Made by a program: the position numbers and the translations under genes. Positions 3,742-58,276 of a stretch of 64,000 bases of DNA are shown here, piece after piece (within the stretch, counting starts at the first letter, position 1; the number at the start of each line of letters is the position of its first letter). The DNA is from Promethearchaeota archaeon (lineage in GTDB: Archaea > Asgardarchaeota > Lokiarchaeia > Sigyniarchaeales > SOKP01). Where the stretch lies: contig JBHLNF010000009.1 in assembly GCA_048937405.1 (NCBI GenBank), positions 96,001-160,000 of the forward strand. Reading direction: 5' to 3'. The notes under the pieces were generated by a model. It saw only the letters and a program-made list of their open reading frames with translations, did no database searches and was not told where the DNA came from.

Positions 3742-6087
3742 TTGGAAAAGAGAGGAGCCAAAGTAAAAATTGATGAATATAAAGGGCCTTTAGGTACAAT
3801 TAAAGGATTTGAATTAACAACAGGTAAAGTTTCTTATGGCGATGAAACTGAATGGGAACCTATGGGACCACATCCAATGCCACATATTCCAACTCTACGT
3901 TCATGGTTTTTCAAAATGATGAAAAGATATAAGCCTTTCTATATGCCAATTTGTGATATGTGCTGTTTATGCACATATGGGAAATGTAATCTTTCCAAGG
4001 GGCGAACAGGTGCATGTGGGATCAATATGGAGACACAACAGAGCCGAATAGTAGAGATTGCTTGTTGTATAGGAGCAGCGTGCCATTCTGCACACGGAGA
4101 TCATCTATTACATTGGTTAAAAGAAAAATATGGTAATGTTCCCATTAATTTCGGTAATAATATAGCCGTTGAGATGCCTCATACAAGATTAGTTGTTGGT
4201 ATGAAACCTGAAACTTTAGAAGATTTAGAAACCGCTATGGAGTGGGTGCATTTTACAATAACACACTTATTAGCAGCTGGACATACAGGACAAGAAAGTT
4301 CTTATTTAGATTATGAATCGAAAAGCTTTTTAGCAGGCTTAGCAGATTCAGTTGGTATGGAGATTTCTGACGCTGTTCAAATTGCTGCATACGGATTTCC
4401 TATGGGAGACCCAGATGTTCCAATAGTAGAACTTGGTATGGGAACATTAGATACAAGTAAGGCTGTAATTTTAATGATTGGACATAATGTTGCCCCTGGA
4501 GTCGAATTAGTTGATTATATAAGAGAAAAAGGTATAGACGATAAGGTAGATGTTGGAGCAATTTGTTGCACTGCTCATGATTTAACTAGATATTATGATG
4601 GTGCTAAGATTGTAGGTTCAATGTCAAGACAGCTTCATGTTATTCGATCAGGGATTCCAGATGTTGTAATGGTTGATGAACAATGTGTAAATCTAAGATC
4701 ATTTGAGCAAGCCCAATTGATTGGTGCTCCTTTTATCGCTACAAATGAAAAGAATATGAGTGGGTTACCTGATAGAACAAATGATCCAATCAATGAAATT
4801 GTTGATGATTTAGTAAGTGGAAAGGAACCAGGAGTCTTAATTTTAGATCCAATAAAAGCTGGTGCAGTGGCATCCGAAACGGCATTAAAAGTCAAACCTA
4901 TTAGAAAAGCAAAAAGTGGAGTTCCTGATGAACAAGGTTGTATTGATATGGCGATGAATTGTAATGGTTGTGGTAATTGCCAGAGAAATTGTCCAAACGA
5001 TTTACCCCTTGTAGAAGGAGTAAAATTGGCAAAGGATGGGGATTTTTCAGTATTGGCTGGAGTATTTGATGACTGTTTAGGATGTGGACGATGTGAGGGA
5101 GATTGCATGAAGGGTGTGTCTCCTTTGACTTTATTACAGTATGCTGCTAGAGAAAAGATTAGAAATGAGAAATTTAACTGTCGAGTAGGGCGCGGGCCTA
5201 TTATGGATACAGAAATTAGGAATGTTGGTGCTCCCATTGTCTTGGGAGAAATTCCAGGAATTGTTGCAATTATTGGATGTGCAAGTTATGCTCATGAAAT
5301 TCAAGAACTTTATAAAATGGCTGAAGAATTTCTAACTAGAAATTACATAGTTGTAGTCTCAGGCTGTGGAGCAATGGATATTGGTCTTGTAAAGGATGAA
5401 GAAGGGAAGACATTATATGATAGATTTCCAGGTGATTTTGATAGAGGCGGTTTAGTAAATGTAGGAAGTTGTGTAAGTAATCCTCATATTACTGGAGCTG
5501 CTATTAAAGTTGCTAATATCTTTGCTCGAAGACCATTACGTGGTAATTTTGAAGAAATTGCGGATTATGTTTTAAACAGAGTTGGTGCAGTTGGTGTTGC
5601 ATGGGGAGCTATGTCTCAAAAGGCAGCTAGTATAGCTAGTATGGCAAATGGTTTAGGTGTGCCTGCTGTTTGTGGACCTCATGCCGCAGAATATAGAAGA
5701 ATGTATATTGGACGCTCTGATGATGAAGATGTTTGGAAAGTGTTCAATGCTCGAGATGGAACAGCTGATCATCTAGTTGGACCTGGACCTGAACATCTAT
5801 TAACAACCGCGGAAAGTATAGAACAAGCTATCTGTTTAGTCGCCAAACTAGCTTTAAGACCAGCAGATAATTCTAAAGGACGAATGATAAAATTATCTCA
5901 TTGGATCGATTTAGAGAGAAAATATAAGGGTGTTAAATTCCCTAATGATTTAGAGAAATTTATCCGTCTAGAAGCTGATATTCCTATTAATATGAAAGAT
6001 GAAATAATGGCATATCTGAAAGAAAAAGGATGGAAACCAAAAGAGATAGTAGATCCAACACTTTTAAAAAGACTATGTAGGACCTAA
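3742..6087 (+). CDS. cdhA: CO dehydrogenase/acetyl-CoA synthase complex alpha subunit (archaeal CODH)
   Basis: WEPMGP, CDMCCLCTYGKC, GHNV, CCTAHD, two CxxCxxCxxxC clusters, GSCVSNPH, WGAMSQKA. Confidence 0.97.
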   Translation: MEKRGAKVKIDEYKGPLGTIKGFELTTGKVSYGDETEWEPMGPHPMPHIPTLRSWFFKMMKRYKPFYMPICDMCCLCTYGKCNLSKGRTGACGINMETQQSRIVEIACCIGAACHSAHGDHLLHWLKEKYGNVPINFGNNIAVEMPHTRLVVGMKPETLEDLETAMEWVHFTITHLLAAGHTGQESSYLDYESKSFLAGLADSVGMEISDAVQIAAYGFPMGDPDVPIVELGMGTLDTSKAVILMIGHNVAPGVELVDYIREKGIDDKVDVGAICCTAHDLTRYYDGAKIVGSMSRQLHVIRSGIPDVVMVDEQCVNLRSFEQAQLIGAPFIATNEKNMSGLPDRTNDPINEIVDDLVSGKEPGVLILDPIKAGAVASETALKVKPIRKAKSGVPDEQGCIDMAMNCNGCGNCQRNCPNDLPLVEGVKLAKDGDFSVLAGVFDDCLGCGRCEGDCMKGVSPLTLLQYAAREKIRNEKFNCRVGRGPIMDTEIRNVGAPIVLGEIPGIVAIIGCASYAHEIQELYKMAEEFLTRNYIVVVSGCGAMDIGLVKDEEGKTLYDRFPGDFDRGGLVNVGSCVSNPHITGAAIKVANIFARRPLRGNFEEIADYVLNRVGAVGVAWGAMSQKAASIASMANGLGVPAVCGPHAAEYRRMYIGRSDDEDVWKVFNARDGTADHLVGPGPEHLLTTAESIEQAICLVAKLALRPADNSKGRMIKLSHWIDLERKYKGVKFPNDLEKFIRLEADIPINMKDEIMAYLKEKGWKPKEIVDPTLLKRLCRT

Positions 6088-50906: not shown

Positions 50907-51437
50907 TTGAGAACAAAAATTCCTTTCTATAAAATATGCATATGCGGAGACTTTAGTGTAGGCAAGACTACATTACTTCACCAATATTTGCAAAGGAGAT
51001 TTACCCCAAATGTTGGTTCGACAATCGGATCCAATTTTTTCGCAAAATATATTAGAATTCCCAATATTAAAGATACTTTTACTTTGCAGATATGGGATTT
51101 AGCAGGACAAGATCGCTATAAGTGGGTAAGACATGAATTTTACAAAGGAGCAAAGGGAATTGTATATGTTTTTGATTTAACAAGAAGGAACACCTTCGAA
51201 AATATTAAAAAATGGAAAGATGAAACTGAGAAAGTTCTTGGAAATTTATCAAGTGTACTTGTTGGAAATAAACTTGATTTAATAAATTCTGGAAATAGAA
51301 TAGTTGAAAAACGAGAAGCAGAGAGTTTAAAAAAGAACATTTCTGCCTGTGAATATTTTGAAGCTAGTGCGAAAATAGGTACTAGTGTAGAAGAATTCTT
51401 TTTGAAATTAGTATCACATATATATAAAACATCCTAA
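50907..51437 (+). CDS. Rab-like small GTPase without C-terminal prenylation Cys
   Basis: GDFSVGKT, STIGSNF, IWDLAGQDRY, FYKGA, NKLD, SAK. Confidence 0.93.
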   Translation: MRTKIPFYKICICGDFSVGKTTLLHQYLQRRFTPNVGSTIGSNFFAKYIRIPNIKDTFTLQIWDLAGQDRYKWVRHEFYKGAKGIVYVFDLTRRNTFENIKKWKDETEKVLGNLSSVLVGNKLDLINSGNRIVEKREAESLKKNISACEYFEASAKIGTSVEEFFLKLVSHIYKTS

Positions 51438-51543: not shown

Positions 51544-52380
51544 TTAAAAGAAAATAAACGATTCTAAATTAAGTAATCCAAATCCACTTTCTAATAATTC
51601 ACCCAAGCGAGAAATAAAACGGGTTGCAGGAGCTCCATCTACAACGTCATGATTAATTAAAACTGTAACTGCTAAATAGTCTCTAATTTCAATTTTTTCC
51701 TCAATTACACCTGGTTTTTTAGTTATTGCTCCAATACCAAAAGCTAGAGGGTGAGTTGTTGTTGGTATTGGCCATCCGTGAAGTTTTCCAAACATACCTA
51801 CCGAAGTAACTATGATGGTTCCCATAAGTTGCTTGATTTTTCTTGGATCTCTAAATTTATTCTTTAGAAGGAATGTTCTAATGAATTTCGGTAAAGCCAC
51901 ATATGTCTTTACATTTTTCTTCATACTGTGATTTCCTAATACTGTTGCTTCGCTAATTTTTTCAGATTGAGCTCTCCTAATTTCTTCATTGATTTGTTTA
52001 ATTGTTTTTTTATTGGTTTGTCTAATGATAAGTGGTATAGGAGTCTTTACTCCTTCAATTGTCCTCTCAATACTTACAGAAATATCAACATCCTCGAATT
52101 GGATGATCTTATTCTTTCCCATCATCATAGAATGAACTTCCTTATATTCACTAGCCGCTTGTCCAACACATTTAAGAAACCATGCAGTAAATGATATTTT
52201 TTCTCCAGTGTTCTTTTCATGTTCCTGAATTTTCTTCCTACCTTCTGTTACATCAAATTCAATTAAACCTTTTACATAATGCTTTTTTGCGCCTAATGAT
52301 AGGAAGTCTAGAGTAGGGATTCTAACTTTTGGGAATTCGATAATCTTATAGTGACCGATATTGCTTAATTCTTTCATCAT
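51544..52380 (-). CDS. Stand-alone 2-oxoacid dehydrogenase E2-type acyltransferase catalytic domain
   Basis: GTIIVTSVGMFG, NHDVVDGAPATRF; no lipoyl domain. Confidence 0.88.
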   Translation of the reverse strand: MMKELSNIGHYKIIEFPKVRIPTLDFLSLGAKKHYVKGLIEFDVTEGRKKIQEHEKNTGEKISFTAWFLKCVGQAASEYKEVHSMMMGKNKIIQFEDVDISVSIERTIEGVKTPIPLIIRQTNKKTIKQINEEIRRAQSEKISEATVLGNHSMKKNVKTYVALPKFIRTFLLKNKFRDPRKIKQLMGTIIVTSVGMFGKLHGWPIPTTTHPLAFGIGAITKKPGVIEEKIEIRDYLAVTVLINHDVVDGAPATRFISRLGELLESGFGLLNLESFIFF

Positions 52381-52641: not shown

Positions 52642-54063
52642 ATGGATTCTGAAACAGAAGAATTACTTATAAATATAGCAAATAAAGCACATTTAGATGA
52701 GGGTATCGAGGGAATTAGATCAATACTTCTAACTATGTATCGCTTTCCTTTTCTTAAAAATAAAAAAGTATCTCAAAAAACGGGAATTGCGATTCCCGCT
52801 CTTGCGGCTGTTAGAGGTGAATTAGTAAAAGCGGGTATAATTGCAGATAAAGTTTTTCTCGGAGAGAAGGGAAAGATATGGGTTACAAAGAATTTAAATT
52901 TAACTTTCGATTATGATCCTTTTCCTAATGGAATTAATTTTGATCTAGATGATATTCCAGAAGAATTTTTATATTTAAAAGAGATAGAAAGCCATCTAAA
53001 GGAACGACCAAGAGCAGAATATGCTCTTGATCAATCACATGCAAACTTAATGACGATTTTAAAAAGAACTTTCTATTTGATTAAAAAAGGTGATATTGAA
53101 GGAAGAAAAATAATTTTTCTCGGTGATGACGACGCAACTTCGATTGCAGTCGCGTTAACTGGATTAGCAAAAGAGATCACTGTTTTAGACATCGATGAGC
53201 GAATTTTAGATTTTCTTTCCAATGTAATTTTACAAAAATCATTGAAAAATTTTAATATTGTTCACCATGATTTAAGAAATCCAAGTCCTAAAGATATTCA
53301 AAATAATTATGATGTTGTTATAATGGATCCTCCTTATACAAATGAGGGATTACGTTTATTTTTAAAGAGGGCTAAAGAAGTGCTTAAATCATACATCAAT
53401 ATTAACGGAAAATTATATCCTATAAATGGAAAGAAATGTTTTCTATGTTTTGGAAATAAACCCCCGAATGATACATTAAAAGTACAATTATCAATATTAG
53501 ATCACGGATTTATTCTCAAGGAAATGATTCCTAATTTTAATCACTATATAGGTGCAAGTATTATAGGACAATTTAGCCATCTTTATTACTTACAAACATT
53601 AACAACTTCAAGTACTCCATTTAATTATAATTATGATTCACAACCACTCTACACTTCTGAATTAAAAAATGGAAGAAATATTTCTTTTCGACCCATTGGA
53701 TATCATTTCACAGGAGAAATGCGATTTAATTCTATTGATCTACTTATGGACAATAAAGCAATATTTCAAGCATTTCTAGAATCACTTACCTCAGCATATT
53801 TAGCAATTGTTGATATTTATAATCATAATTACTATCCTTTTGGATATAGTGTGGTTGCAATATTAGAAACAAGTCATGCTGCTGTTCATACTTGGCCAGA
53901 ACATGGATATGTCAGTATAGATTATTTTATATGTGATGAATTTCAGAAGGGAATAAAAGCTCTTAAGATATTAAAACAAATACTTAACCCAAAAAACGCC
54001 AAATTCTTTTATATTGAACGTGGTAAAGAATTAACCGAAAGTTATAATCCTATTGAAATTTAA
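52642..54063 (+). CDS. bpsA: Branched-chain polyamine synthase (BpsA) fused to a C-terminal pyruvoyl AdoMet decarboxylase (SpeD)
   Basis: RP....LDQ, GDIEGRKIIFLGDDD, DIDERIL, DPPY, FNHY; then GYH...YPFGYS..ILETSHAAVHTWPEHGYVSIDYFIC...ERG. Confidence 0.85.
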   Translation: MDSETEELLINIANKAHLDEGIEGIRSILLTMYRFPFLKNKKVSQKTGIAIPALAAVRGELVKAGIIADKVFLGEKGKIWVTKNLNLTFDYDPFPNGINFDLDDIPEEFLYLKEIESHLKERPRAEYALDQSHANLMTILKRTFYLIKKGDIEGRKIIFLGDDDATSIAVALTGLAKEITVLDIDERILDFLSNVILQKSLKNFNIVHHDLRNPSPKDIQNNYDVVIMDPPYTNEGLRLFLKRAKEVLKSYININGKLYPINGKKCFLCFGNKPPNDTLKVQLSILDHGFILKEMIPNFNHYIGASIIGQFSHLYYLQTLTTSSTPFNYNYDSQPLYTSELKNGRNISFRPIGYHFTGEMRFNSIDLLMDNKAIFQAFLESLTSAYLAIVDIYNHNYYPFGYSVVAILETSHAAVHTWPEHGYVSIDYFICDEFQKGIKALKILKQILNPKNAKFFYIERGKELTESYNPIEI

Positions 54064-55234: not shown

Positions 55235-55660
55235 GTGAGTTTTATGGCAAAAAAAGAAGAGAAGAAAAAGAAAAAACCAATGTTTGATAAAGTGGGACTT
55301 GTTTTTAGGAGTCCTGTAAGGGCAGATATTTTAAGGGAATTAGCTGAAAATCCTCAACGACCTACAGAAATTGCCGAAAATATAGGGCTTCAAAAACAAA
55401 ATATTAATTATCATTTAAATGCTTTAAAACGGGGAGGTATAGTAAAAGTTCGGAAAGAGGAATATCCCGAAGCAGAAATCCCAAAAGGAAAAGGTAAAAG
55501 GATTAATGGAGTAAGTAAAAACGGAAAGGTAAAAGTAGTTCAAGGAGTAGAACTTACTAAAAATGGTAAAGATATTGTAAATAAGTTTATAAGTCCACTT
55601 TATGAGGATAATTTGCCAAAAAAAAACGAACGTATAAAAGAAAAAAAGGAGGATGAATAA
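55235..55660 (+). CDS. ArsR-like winged-helix regulator with an extended basic wing
   Basis: SPVRADILREL..PTEIAE..KQNINYHLNALKRGGIV...LTKNG. Confidence 0.85.
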   Translation: MSFMAKKEEKKKKKPMFDKVGLVFRSPVRADILRELAENPQRPTEIAENIGLQKQNINYHLNALKRGGIVKVRKEEYPEAEIPKGKGKRINGVSKNGKVKVVQGVELTKNGKDIVNKFISPLYEDNLPKKNERIKEKKEDE

Positions 55661-55662
55661 GT

Positions 55663-56697
55663 TTGAAAAATGAAGTTATAAAAATTGTTAAAACCATATT
55701 TGAAAATCCACTAAGCTATCTTAAATTTGATATACCTCAAGTTTATAAAAATATGACAGTTATCCCCATCATTGTTCAAGATGATAAATTTATTGAATTT
55801 ATTAATATCAAAGAAGCAGAAGAACTAGAATTAATCGAAATTGTTGAAACAGAATCGGTTGGTCAATTGGAAGTTAAAAATAAAAGTGATACACAAGTAT
55901 TAATTCCATTTGGAATGACGGTTCATGGGGGAAAACAAGATAGAACCATATGGGAGCCTATTTTATTACCTGTAGGAGGAAAACAAAAGATAGTTAGTAA
56001 GAATCCAGGAACTGTTAAAGAAAAATACACAATCCCTGCTAAATGTGTGGAACAATCAAGATGGAATTATAAAAAAAATCCAGGTTTTAAATCATCAAAT
56101 ACAAGACTACATCCTAATGTTGCTTATGAAGCTATTTCAGCGGCTGGGCAAAATGCAGTATGGAATGAGATTCAATCACATAGATATGAAATGAATTACC
56201 TCCCATCTATTGCTCCTACTCAAAGTTACCTTGAAATGACAAAAGAATCTGAAAAACAAACAGGAGATCTTATTAAGCATTTTATTAATATAGAAAATCA
56301 ATGTGGAATTGCAGTGTTTATTAATGGAGAATTTATTGGCATAGAGTTTTATGCAAATCCTAATGCATGGAAAACAATGAGTAAAGATATTCTCACAGCT
56401 TTTTCCATTGAAGCATTAAGATTTATGGATAAACCTAAAAAAAGGGTTACTGAGTTTCATGATGAACTTCTAAAATTTTTACCAAAATTAAGTTTCGAAT
56501 ACACTACTAGAGAAGGAATAGCTCTTGGAAATGTAGTAGAATTTAGTTCTACGGATAATAAATGGCGCGGAATTACACTAGTACATGATAAAAATATGGC
56601 ACAATTTTACTTGGTTTCAAAACGAGGTGGTTATCAAGAGAAACCTCGTTCCAATATTCAATTCCAAACCGTAATTGATCAAAGATATCAAGTTTAA
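55663..56697 (+). CDS. ARPP-1 (DUF6569) family protein
   Basis: GGKQDRTI, IPAKCVEQSRW, QNAVW, QCGIAVFING..IEF. Confidence 0.8.
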   Translation: MKNEVIKIVKTIFENPLSYLKFDIPQVYKNMTVIPIIVQDDKFIEFINIKEAEELELIEIVETESVGQLEVKNKSDTQVLIPFGMTVHGGKQDRTIWEPILLPVGGKQKIVSKNPGTVKEKYTIPAKCVEQSRWNYKKNPGFKSSNTRLHPNVAYEAISAAGQNAVWNEIQSHRYEMNYLPSIAPTQSYLEMTKESEKQTGDLIKHFINIENQCGIAVFINGEFIGIEFYANPNAWKTMSKDILTAFSIEALRFMDKPKKRVTEFHDELLKFLPKLSFEYTTREGIALGNVVEFSSTDNKWRGITLVHDKNMAQFYLVSKRGGYQEKPRSNIQFQTVIDQRYQV

Positions 56698-56902: not shown

Positions 56903-58276
56903 ATGGTATATTTTCAGATTAGTCCTGTAGGATTTGATTGTGGAATAAATAAAGACGAATGTCAAAGATATCCAGATTTCTGTAAAGAGTGTGTAGAAGA
57001 ACAGCTTCATAAAATTGGTTTATACCTAGATCAAAATTTAAAGATTACAATGATTGATTCAGAAGAAAAACGTATCAAGGTATTTAAGGATTTAATCTGG
57101 CAAACCTTTTTAGATGTTCTAAACATTAAACACATTATATTAATGACAAAAGATTCAGGATTACCAATAATAGATTATCCACTTTCAGGTGCTGGTATAA
57201 ATATTGAATTATTATTAGGATTTATACAAGCAAATATAACTTTTTCTGAAACAGGGACGACAATTAATGATAATTCCAAAAGTGGAAAAGATAATCCCTT
57301 TTATGAGTTTCATTATGAGACTTTCAATATTTTACTAAAAAACAGAGAACAAATTAGGATTTGTTTAGTTTTAGATCATAAGGCTTCTGATAGTCTGAAA
57401 AATCTTGTTATTGAGTTTTTAAATGAATATGAGTCAAGATATTTTGATAAATTAGAGAGATTTATTAATACCAAGAAGCTTGAATTCGAAGATACAATTG
57501 ATTTCATAATTGACACTTTCAATATTAAATTGGTCTTTCCTATGACTCTAACCCATACATTTTTACCAAATACATTAGAAGCAATCAAAAAAAATCCTAT
57601 ACAAAAAGCTATAATCGATTTTGCTAAACAATTATTAGCTTCAAAGCACTTCTTTTTTATTATCAATTTAATTGATGAAGTTCAAAAAATTGTACATATT
57701 GAGGCTAAAAATATACTTTACGAGATATATCAACTTTTAGAACAAAATAGTATATATCCAACGACAATTGAGATAGCTGAAGATAAGGTTCTGAAATTTC
57801 ATGAATCAAATGCAACACGATTAGCCAGTAATGAGCTTATTTCTCCAATTATTGCTAATGATGATGCTATTAATGAACTGAAAAAAAAAGCTCAATCAAT
57901 GAGTGAGGAAGAAGTTAGAAAGGCAATATCTGCTTATATTAAAAAAGCTCAAACTGCTGAAAAATCTTTAATATACAAGGAAGCTCTACGAGAATATGAG
58001 AGAGCTTTATATTTAGCAACTGGTTTTGATTTTAAGGAAGAAATTGGGCGAATATCATTTTCCGTCTTAGAACTTGATAAAAAGATTAAAGAAATGGATC
58101 TTGAATATGCCTTGATTGCTGCTGAAAAAGCTGAAAAAAAGAAAGACTATATAAATGCTATTAATTACTATAAACAAGGATTAAAGATTCTTAGAGATGT
58201 CCAAGATTTCAATGGAAATGAAAATCGAATTAAAAAATTAGAAAAAAAGATTTTAAACCTCCAAAAGCATTTGTGA
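56903..58276 (+). CDS. Soluble protein: Cys cluster, longin-like domain and TPR-like tail
   Basis: IILMTKDSGLPI...LLLGFIQA; helical repeats ALREYERAL, AINYYKQGL. Confidence 0.7.
   Translation: MVYFQISPVGFDCGINKDECQRYPDFCKECVEEQLHKIGLYLDQNLKITMIDSEEKRIKVFKDLIWQTFLDVLNIKHIILMTKDSGLPIIDYPLSGAGINIELLLGFIQANITFSETGTTINDNSKSGKDNPFYEFHYETFNILLKNREQIRICLVLDHKASDSLKNLVIEFLNEYESRYFDKLERFINTKKLEFEDTIDFIIDTFNIKLVFPMTLTHTFLPNTLEAIKKNPIQKAIIDFAKQLLASKHFFFIINLIDEVQKIVHIEAKNILYEIYQLLEQNSIYPTTIEIAEDKVLKFHESNATRLASNELISPIIANDDAINELKKKAQSMSEEEVRKAISAYIKKAQTAEKSLIYKEALREYERALYLATGFDFKEEIGRISFSVLELDKKIKEMDLEYALIAAEKAEKKKDYINAINYYKQGLKILRDVQDFNGNENRIKKLEKKILNLQKHL

Follow-up and report, generated by a model that had tools for sequence, protein, structure and literature searches.

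A BpsA-like aminopropyltransferase fused to a class 1b S-adenosylmethionine decarboxylase in a promethearchaeal genome

The window analysed here is a stretch of 64,000 nucleotides (GC content ∼29%) from contig JBHLNF010000009.1 of a Promethearchaeota archaeon (assembly GCA_048937405.1; 4.47 Mb in 29 contigs, 100% complete). On its forward strand, at 52642..54063, lies an open reading frame (ORF) of 473 amino acids plus a stop codon, with no internal stop, in which a BpsA-like aminopropyltransferase is fused to a class 1b S-adenosylmethionine decarboxylase (AdoMetDC or SpeD). Going by its sequence, the gene probably encodes a self-sufficient, bifunctional polyamine-aminopropylating enzyme: a transferase of the type marked by a DPPYT motif would be combined with a self-cleaving SpeD domain, and the acceptor would be made without decarboxylated S-adenosylmethionine (dcSAM) or imported. 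The domain architecture, the folds, the conserved catalytic residues, the gene content and the phyletic pattern behind this reading are direct observations.

Domain architecture and active-site residues

The catalytic Rossmann-type domain of the transferase (residues 114–317; 52981..53592) is recognized by Pfam BpsA_C with 153 bits (cut-off 27), covering profile positions 5–198 of 243, and also by structure matching and profile alignment. The SpeE-type family PF01564 gives only 13.3 bits on the ORF product, which is under its cut-off. The class 1b AdoMetDC domain (residues 352–473; 53695..54060) starts at about nucleotide 53695–53704. Pfam AdoMet_dc (PF02675) matches residues 355–461 with 82 bits over all 107 profile positions, and the NCBIfam AdoMetDC equivalog TIGR03330 reaches 83.4, over its cut-off of 75.65. 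The AlphaFold2 model, made from an alignment of 103 sequences, has a mean predicted local distance difference test score (pLDDT) of 90.9, with low confidence restricted to residues 324–330 and 343–351. The latter form the short linker between transferase and SpeD (53668..53694; pLDDT < 50). The model matches Thermococcus kodakarensis BpsA (Tk-BpsA; PDB entry 5xnf) with an E value of 4e-20 over 348 columns in Foldseek, and Thermotoga maritima SpeD (PDB entry 1tlu) with a root-mean-square deviation of 1.6 Å and a TM score of 0.87. An earlier note on this DNA had placed an in-frame SpeD-fold domain at about position 53695, and Pfam, TIGR03330 and the fold all agree with it.

Residues 1–105 (52642..52956) form a winged-helix-like domain which, from profile alignment and the model, is the usual N-domain of the BpsA family. 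Aligned by profile to Tk-BpsA and to Pf 2qm3, it begins at profile position 3, and the alignment runs through to NFNEY. Helices span residues 3–119 in the model, and the domain gives weak matches to DtxR-type winged helix-turn-helix families and a match to HTH_24 at E 0.033. The helix-turn-helix-like N-terminus of about 100 residues in the earlier note is therefore present, but it is the normal BpsA N-domain and not an addition; an 'extra' helix-turn-helix domain is ruled out, as Tk-BpsA itself has an N-terminal domain that aligns with it.

The GDDD motif (residues 161–164; 53122..53133) corresponds to Gly157–Asp160 of Tk-BpsA in a gap-free alignment to PDB entry 5xnc. In BpsA this motif positions the aminopropyl group of dcSAM (PMC12979288). 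Across the 33 fused proteins aligned, Gly161, Asp162 and Asp164 are invariant and Asp163 is at least 90% conserved. The donor-side residues Asp130/Gln131 and Asp229 are conserved in the fused relatives, and the acidic pocket residues Asp130, Asp162–164, Asp229 and Glu340 are conserved as well. Two acceptor-side residues are kept in the alignments: Asp229, equivalent to Tk Asp225, opens the DPPYT motif (residues 229–233; 53326..53340), and Tyr302, equivalent to Tk Tyr290, closes NFNHY (residues 298–302; 53533..53547). The Tyr-Thr pair of DPPYT is specific to the subfamily, whereas characterized BpsAs carry DPPE (Thermococcus, Pyrococcus) or DPVE (Thermus). GDDD and DPPY had been taken for intact BpsA motifs; both are present, but alignment to the characterized BpsAs rules out DPPY as a canonical motif of that family.

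When 101 sequences of the DPPYT subfamily were compared, profile to profile, with 20 canonical BpsAs in hhalign, the probability was 100% and the identity 27%, with 324 columns aligned. Two further acceptor-side residues of Tk-BpsA have no counterpart in this alignment: Glu259 falls in a two-residue gap, where the RRE dipeptide insert is absent, and Tyr316 sits in an 18-residue insert with NWY that is absent from the subfamily. The canonical tail LYNDEE(S/A)STT-COOH aligns with LYTSE (residues 336–340; 53647..53661), which is what remains of the C-terminal lid, canonically (L/I)Y(N/E)DEE, and keeps one conserved Glu; from there the chain runs via a nine-residue linker into SpeD. Tyr337 is invariant in 103 sequences and the subfamily consensus at the lid is IYTxE. 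A picture in which SpeD wholly replaces the acidic lid was corrected by hhalign, which keeps the Tyr and the Glu of the lid motif. The free and flexible acidic cluster at the C-terminus (Tk Glu339 and Asp342–Glu345) is thus reduced in the fusion to that single Glu; according to a 2026 review of branched-chain polyamines (PMC12979288), it is the acidic residues of this tail that carry the aminopropyl group, and the tail sets product specificity. On these alignments the transferase half is a member of the Pfam BpsA_C family that lies outside the characterized BpsA clade, in a separate subfamily of which DPPYT is the mark and in which the acceptor side and the lid differ from those of characterized BpsA.

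In the SpeD half, Ser411, His416, Cys431 and HTWPE each reach a conservation of 90% or more in the fused proteins (33 aligned). In T. maritima SpeD we take Ser63, His68 and Cys83 to be the pyruvoyl serine, the catalytic histidine and the catalytic cysteine; the roles of these residues were reportedly described by Toms and coworkers in 2004. The predicted self-cleavage site lies between Thr410 and Ser411 (53869..53874), on the evidence of spacing and of conservation among fused relatives. Its context is LETSH..HTWPE, and the S-H-x-x-x-HTWPE spacing is that of the fused relatives that bear ESH. Ser411 would become the pyruvoyl group, and the products computed for cleavage at this site are a transferase-bearing chain of 46.8 kDa and a pyruvoyl chain of 7.4 kDa.

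Two other SpeD sequences depart from this pattern. A fused relative, P0126, has a degraded SpeD domain (no Ser, Gln for His and AWPE) together with GDAD for GDDD, and both of its halves seem, from these substitutions, to have decayed together. The stand-alone SpeD of the Asgard family f29 (L067 1580–1960, reverse strand; L070–L075) has LKETHIS(I/L)HTWPE conserved in seven genomes, with Thr at the position expected for the pyruvoyl-forming Ser.

Relatives, gene content and distribution

A word-indexed search found 311 relatives of the ORF product. The best 120 of these, all 471–482 amino acids long and 59–90% identical, have both Pfam domains; their sources are independent assemblies of NCBI, JGI, ENA and Logan that bear the labels Lokiarchaeota, Thorarchaeota, Hodarchaeota or Promethearchaeota. 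The nearest ones go under the name Lokiarchaeota or Promethearchaeota. When 1.84 billion representatives were searched exhaustively with HMMER, 4283 relatives came up, with many more fused clusters among them, and both domains are found in all 33 of the fused proteins aligned. Fused members include Odinarchaeota, Heimdallarchaeota and Hodarchaeales, and extend to candidate division WWE3/Patescibacteria and to the cultured mesophiles Vagococcus fluvialis and Erysipelothrix spp. (whose RefSeq WP_ records name the protein 'adenosylmethionine decarboxylase'). The fusion, which the earlier note placed in a lineage largely known from cool sediments and marked for testing as an assembly artefact, is thus real and conserved, being present in more than 300 related proteins from several Asgard lineages and from bacteria, but it is not lineage-specific, as cultured mesophilic Firmicutes have it too.

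After IYTGE, the unfused proteins of the subfamily have a zinc-ribbon tail of ∼50 residues (CxxC...CxxC), at the place where SpeD sits in the fusion, and some bacterial proteins combine the transferase, the zinc ribbon and SpeD. On the transferase-domain tree the fused state needs five changes, at least three of which are forced by well supported branches.

Apart from the fusion, no AdoMet_dc or BpsA_C protein was found in the host genome. No SpeE was found, the two weak PF01564 matches being generic methyltransferases, and CASDH was not found in the genome either. There are two decarboxylases of the alanine-racemase fold: one passes the lysA equivalog cut-off, and the other also matches lysA best but is far below that cut-off. 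A pyruvoyl arginine decarboxylase (PvlArgDC) is present, its gene divergent from and adjoining that of one of two deoxyhypusine synthase (DHS) homologues, and an agmatinase homologue stands in tandem with the second (DHS homologues at C7:1025983-1027817 and C28:281525-283315). A route to homospermidine through arginine decarboxylase, a DHS homologue (SpeY) and a ureohydrolase has been shown in bacteria (PMC13625781), and by analogy the gene pairs found here resemble this agmatine/SpeY/ureohydrolase route. The assembly contains no 16S rRNA. Proxies for growth temperature were 54 °C from IVYWREL (inflated by the 29% GC content), a charged-minus-polar bias of 4.5 and a tRNA GC content of 0.60 (from only seven tRNAs).

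We surveyed 301 Asgard genomes by family; related genomes are not independent, so the counts that follow describe patterns and are not statistics. Among 70 genomes sampled from the window's own family (f1), SpeD occurs in 17 and DHS in all 70, most of them with two DHS copies. The whole-profile SpeD copy in f1 always lies in a frame of the size of the fusion (∼475–500 amino acids, one of them cut by a contig end); one genome, G104, has a partial second SpeD match besides the fusion copy. Because SpeD is found in 17/70 genomes and always at the size of the fusion, while DHS is found in 70/70, the fusion is an accessory and self-contained module in f1. The same counts rule it out as the family's obligatory source of spermidine for deoxyhypusine synthase.

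By family, the fused form with SpeD inside it was tallied in 27/68 genomes of f1 (SpeE in 4/68, weak matches only) and in 20/21 of f24 (SpeE in 1/21). Family f29 has an unfused DPPY-type gene with speD ∼60 bp upstream and SpeE in 0/11 genomes, while f2 has the DPPY type with an unlinked SpeD in 5/7 and SpeE in 0/7. The zinc-ribbon type is found in f7 in 28/28 genomes, with SpeD in 0/28 and SpeE in 0/28. The families f8, f10, f11, f17, f19, f21, f22 and f25 show weaker, partial matches to the fusion; SpeD is present in them and SpeE is strong (>160 bits). The sole cluster read among the SpeE-bearing families (G066, from f22) has a canonical DPPE-type BpsA with an acidic tail beside speD and speE. 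In the sampled Asgard genomes, the DPPYT subfamily thus occurs where SpeE is not found, whereas canonical BpsA adjoins SpeE and SpeD. This suggests that many Asgard lineages lack the SpeD/SpeE route to spermidine and that dcSAM-dependent polyamines are accessory in them.

The single f7 protein that was read (G026; L066 588–1736, reverse strand) has GDSD in place of GDDD. A search for class 2 AdoMetDC in four f7 genomes gave no match, and the control genomes were likewise silent.

Proposed reaction and its alternatives

In the scheme that we favour, the SpeD domain would cleave itself between Thr410 and Ser411, so that the 46.8 kDa chain would consist of the transferase and the first half of SpeD. 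The 7.4 kDa pyruvoyl-headed chain would decarboxylate S-adenosylmethionine to dcSAM, which the DPPYT transferase would spend on an amine. The first acceptor would be made without dcSAM or taken up, because the genome has neither SpeE nor a second SpeD; candidates are agmatine or putrescine (from PvlArgDC and the agmatinase homologue) and homospermidine (from the two DHS homologues). The product would be an aminopropylated diamine or triamine, maybe spermidine or N1-aminopropylagmatine, possibly further extended and not necessarily branched. The transferase would stand in for SpeE instead of acting after it. The Rosetta-stone logic of the earlier note, in which the fusion supplies dcSAM on site, is supported on three counts: speD and bpsA-like genes form operons in f29, the domain tree has three or more changes of the fused state, and no other SpeD or BpsA_C protein was found in the host. 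P0126, with its dead SpeD and GDAD, and the f7 protein with GDSD from a genome with no SpeD also count in favour of this scheme.

Several points weigh against it. The cleavage, the two enzyme activities, the acceptor and the product are predictions, and the subfamily is so far uncharacterized. With DHS in every f1 genome and the fusion in about a quarter of them, the fusion is dispensable. The zinc-ribbon relatives of f7 are present throughout the family with no SpeD at all, so not every DPPYT member can depend on class 1 SpeD, and the DPPY-type enzymes of f7 may use a different donor. It is possible that spermidine uptake would allow a reaction like that of canonical BpsA. Finally, the residue before the cleavage serine is Thr and not the usual Glu of class 1b SpeD (ESH). 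ETSH or KTSH runs throughout a clade of 45 sequences from Loki-, Thor- and Hodarchaeota (99% support), and this clade nests among fused Heimdall-, Hod- and Odinarchaeota proteins with the canonical ESH; the bacterial fused proteins also have ESH. The Thr is thus derived and maintained. The residue at this position varies among pyruvoyl enzymes and is a weak criterion.

The alternative that survives best, although we regard it as unlikely, is that the protein is a true BpsA that turns spermidine into N4-bis(aminopropyl)spermidine with dcSAM made on site, the spermidine coming from uptake or from a prior step of its own on putrescine or agmatine. It is a Pfam BpsA_C protein that, among solved structures, is closest to Tk-BpsA and Tt-BpsA, the latter described as a generalist (PMC12979288); the equivalents of GDDD, Asp225 and Tyr290 are kept, and Tyr337 and Glu340 align with LYNDEE. 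Against this stand an identity of only ∼27%, the gaps at Glu259 and Tyr316, and an acidic cluster that is down to one Glu with no free C-terminus. The genome has no SpeE or CASDH that we could find, and the Asgard protein that adjoins SpeE and SpeD is of the DPPE type and not of the DPPYT type. Forming N4-bis(aminopropyl)spermidine would need iteration or spermidine uptake, for which there is no specific support. The earlier note's identification of the transferase as a BpsA making this product is not supported for a member of the distinct DPPYT subfamily without counterparts of Glu259 and Tyr316, with most of the acidic cluster gone and with no SpeE in its genome.

It is very unlikely that the SpeD domain is something other than an AdoMetDC, either a neofunctionalized pyruvoyl decarboxylase of arginine or ornithine that provides the amine acceptor, or a domain that is inactive and serves for structure or dimerization, like the N-domain of human spermine synthase. 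The non-canonical ETSH cleavage site and the clearly dead SpeD of P0126 fit such a role, and SpeD homologues that are arginine or ornithine decarboxylases are widespread, and degraded SpeD domains occur in fusions (PMC10407285, PMC12803844). However, Ser411, His416, Cys431 and HTWPE are all kept in the 45-sequence clade with Thr before Ser, which nests among proteins with ESH, and TIGR03330 is over its cut-off. The genome already has PvlArgDC, and no other source of dcSAM for a GDDD-type transferase was found in it.

We give a similarly small chance to the DPPYT domain aminopropylating or alkylating a macromolecule or another small amine, its target being recognized by the N-terminal winged helix and, in unfused relatives, by the zinc ribbon. 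DPPY is motif IV of amino-directed methyltransferases, and the domain has weak matches to N6-adenine methyltransferases and METTL5; the zinc-ribbon tail of the unfused relatives and the f7 members, which have no SpeD and one of which has GDSD, point in the same direction. The same N-domain is nevertheless found in Tk-BpsA, which acts on small polyamines, the acidic pocket is conserved, and a SpeD that is fused to the transferase or shares its operon speaks for classical chemistry with dcSAM. The last alternative, that two adjacent genes were joined by an assembly error or a frameshift, is refuted by more than 300 fused proteins of 471–482 amino acids in NCBI, JGI, ENA and Logan assemblies, by full-length, stop-free matches in 27 other genomes of f1 and by fused genes in complete genomes of cultured bacteria.

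Gene neighbourhood and comparison with known systems

No polyamine genes were found near the ORF in the window. Its neighbours are genes for a metallo-β-lactamase-fold protein, a Ras-family small GTPase (50907–51437, forward strand), an E2-like acyltransferase, a nitroreductase and an ArsR-type helix-turn-helix protein followed by an ARPP-1 domain protein (55235–56697, forward strand). Four related loci likewise have the ArsR gene close to the fusion. Further downstream, a 457-residue protein (56903–58276, forward strand) has a weak C-terminal match to the MIT domain, below the Pfam cut-off. The acyltransferase gene (51544–52380, reverse strand) adjoins the fusion divergently and encodes a stand-alone protein of 278 amino acids of the 2-oxoacid dehydrogenase CAT type with HxxxDG. 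It adjoins the fusion, divergent upstream or tandem downstream, in seven of 11 related loci (e.g. G156, G177, G189 and G049), and is found in all ten fusion-bearing genomes of genus g1 and in two fusion-less genomes; no such link was found in genus g4. The fusion gene of Vagococcus is followed by one for a GNAT acetyltransferase. The neighbouring E2-like enzyme may acylate the polyamine product. Elsewhere in the window, positions 4001–6000 reach a GC content of 0.378 with a strong GC skew, compared with ∼0.28 in the remainder, and Rfam gave no match on the window.

The fusion might have a wider role, which we put forward tentatively and with more doubt than confidence: a DPPYT enzyme, fused to SpeD or in an operon with it, could replace spermidine synthase in several Asgard lineages (including those of proteins labelled Heimdallarchaeota and Hodarchaeales), making a polyamine so far unreported from archaea, such as a derivative of homospermidine or agmatine that bears an aminopropyl group, which the acyltransferase encoded next to the fusion might then acylate. 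If this were true, the closest archaeal relatives of eukaryotes would not be using the eukaryotic SpeD/SpeE route. Accessory dcSAM-dependent polyamines in Asgard archaea bear on the way in which eukaryotes came by their polyamine and hypusine pathways. The fusion also marks a large, uncharacterized subfamily that is widespread outside thermophiles, and it offers a clean experimental handle, as one gene should suffice and the cultured Vagococcus and Erysipelothrix carry fused genes.

The earlier note knew of no description of this fusion, and our search agrees: no paper was found on a SpeD fusion of the BpsA type or on BpsA in Asgard archaea, and the 2026 review (PMC12979288) contains none of the words 'fusion', 'fused' and 'Asgard'. 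The proteins themselves are public under automatic names. The BpsA literature, including that review, treats the family as a speciality of thermophiles and does not include the DPPYT subfamily. A canonical clade set of 40 loci, fetched by a DNA pattern for NFNEYVNWGY, contains canonical-type BpsA loci from Thermococcus, Methanothermococcus and Thermoplasmata. Canonical BpsA (DPPET, with the tail YEDEESSTT) was also found in metagenome-assembled genomes labelled Dadabacteria, groundwater Deltaproteobacterium, Spirochaetia, Ignavibacteriales and Acidobacteriota (L026, L039, L046, L049, L052, L062 and L065). The canonical clade thus also reaches assembled genomes of lineages that are not known as thermophiles and whose growth temperatures are not known.

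Compared with canonical BpsA (EC 2.5.1.128; T. kodakarensis TK1691, PDB entries 5xnc and 5xnf; Thermus thermophilus, PDB entry 6j27), the fusion shares the Pfam family, the build of N-domain and Rossmann domain, GDDD, the Asp225 and Tyr290 equivalents and the Tyr and Glu of the lid motif. It differs in having DPPYT where canonical BpsA has DPPET, and in lacking Glu259, the Tyr316 insert and the free acidic tail. Canonical BpsA works downstream of a spermidine-forming SpeE, whereas the fusion sits in a genome without SpeE. The unfused DPPYT-type proteins of the Asgard families f7, f29 and f2, of Bathyarchaeia and of many metagenomic clusters, all uncharacterized, are 30–39% identical to it and share LDQ, GDDD, DPPYT, NFxxY and IYTxE, and the zinc-ribbon forms intermingle with the fused forms on the tree. 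With class 1b SpeD (T. maritima TM0655, PDB entries 1tlu and 1vr7; the Bacillus subtilis type of TIGR03330) the fusion has in common the full domain, its fold, the Ser, His and Cys residues and HTWPE. Here, however, the domain is attached C-terminally to a transferase of 350 amino acids, Thr replaces Glu before the Ser, and the predicted 'small' β-chain would be 410 residues long.

The closest precedents in organization are the bacterial AdoMetDC–SpeE fusions of Pelagibacter, a δ-proteobacterium and Candidatus Krumholzibacteria, for which both activities have been shown; animal spermine synthase is a descendant of bacterial fusions of AdoMetDC with an aminopropyltransferase (PMC11107197, PMC12803844). 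These proteins and the window's fusion alike hold the enzyme that makes dcSAM and the enzyme that uses it in one polypeptide. The validated fusions of this kind have so far been of the SpeE type only, with a PF01564 transferase and SpeD at the N-terminus, whereas the fusion described here belongs to the other transferase family, is BpsA-like and has the reverse domain order, with SpeD at the C-terminus.

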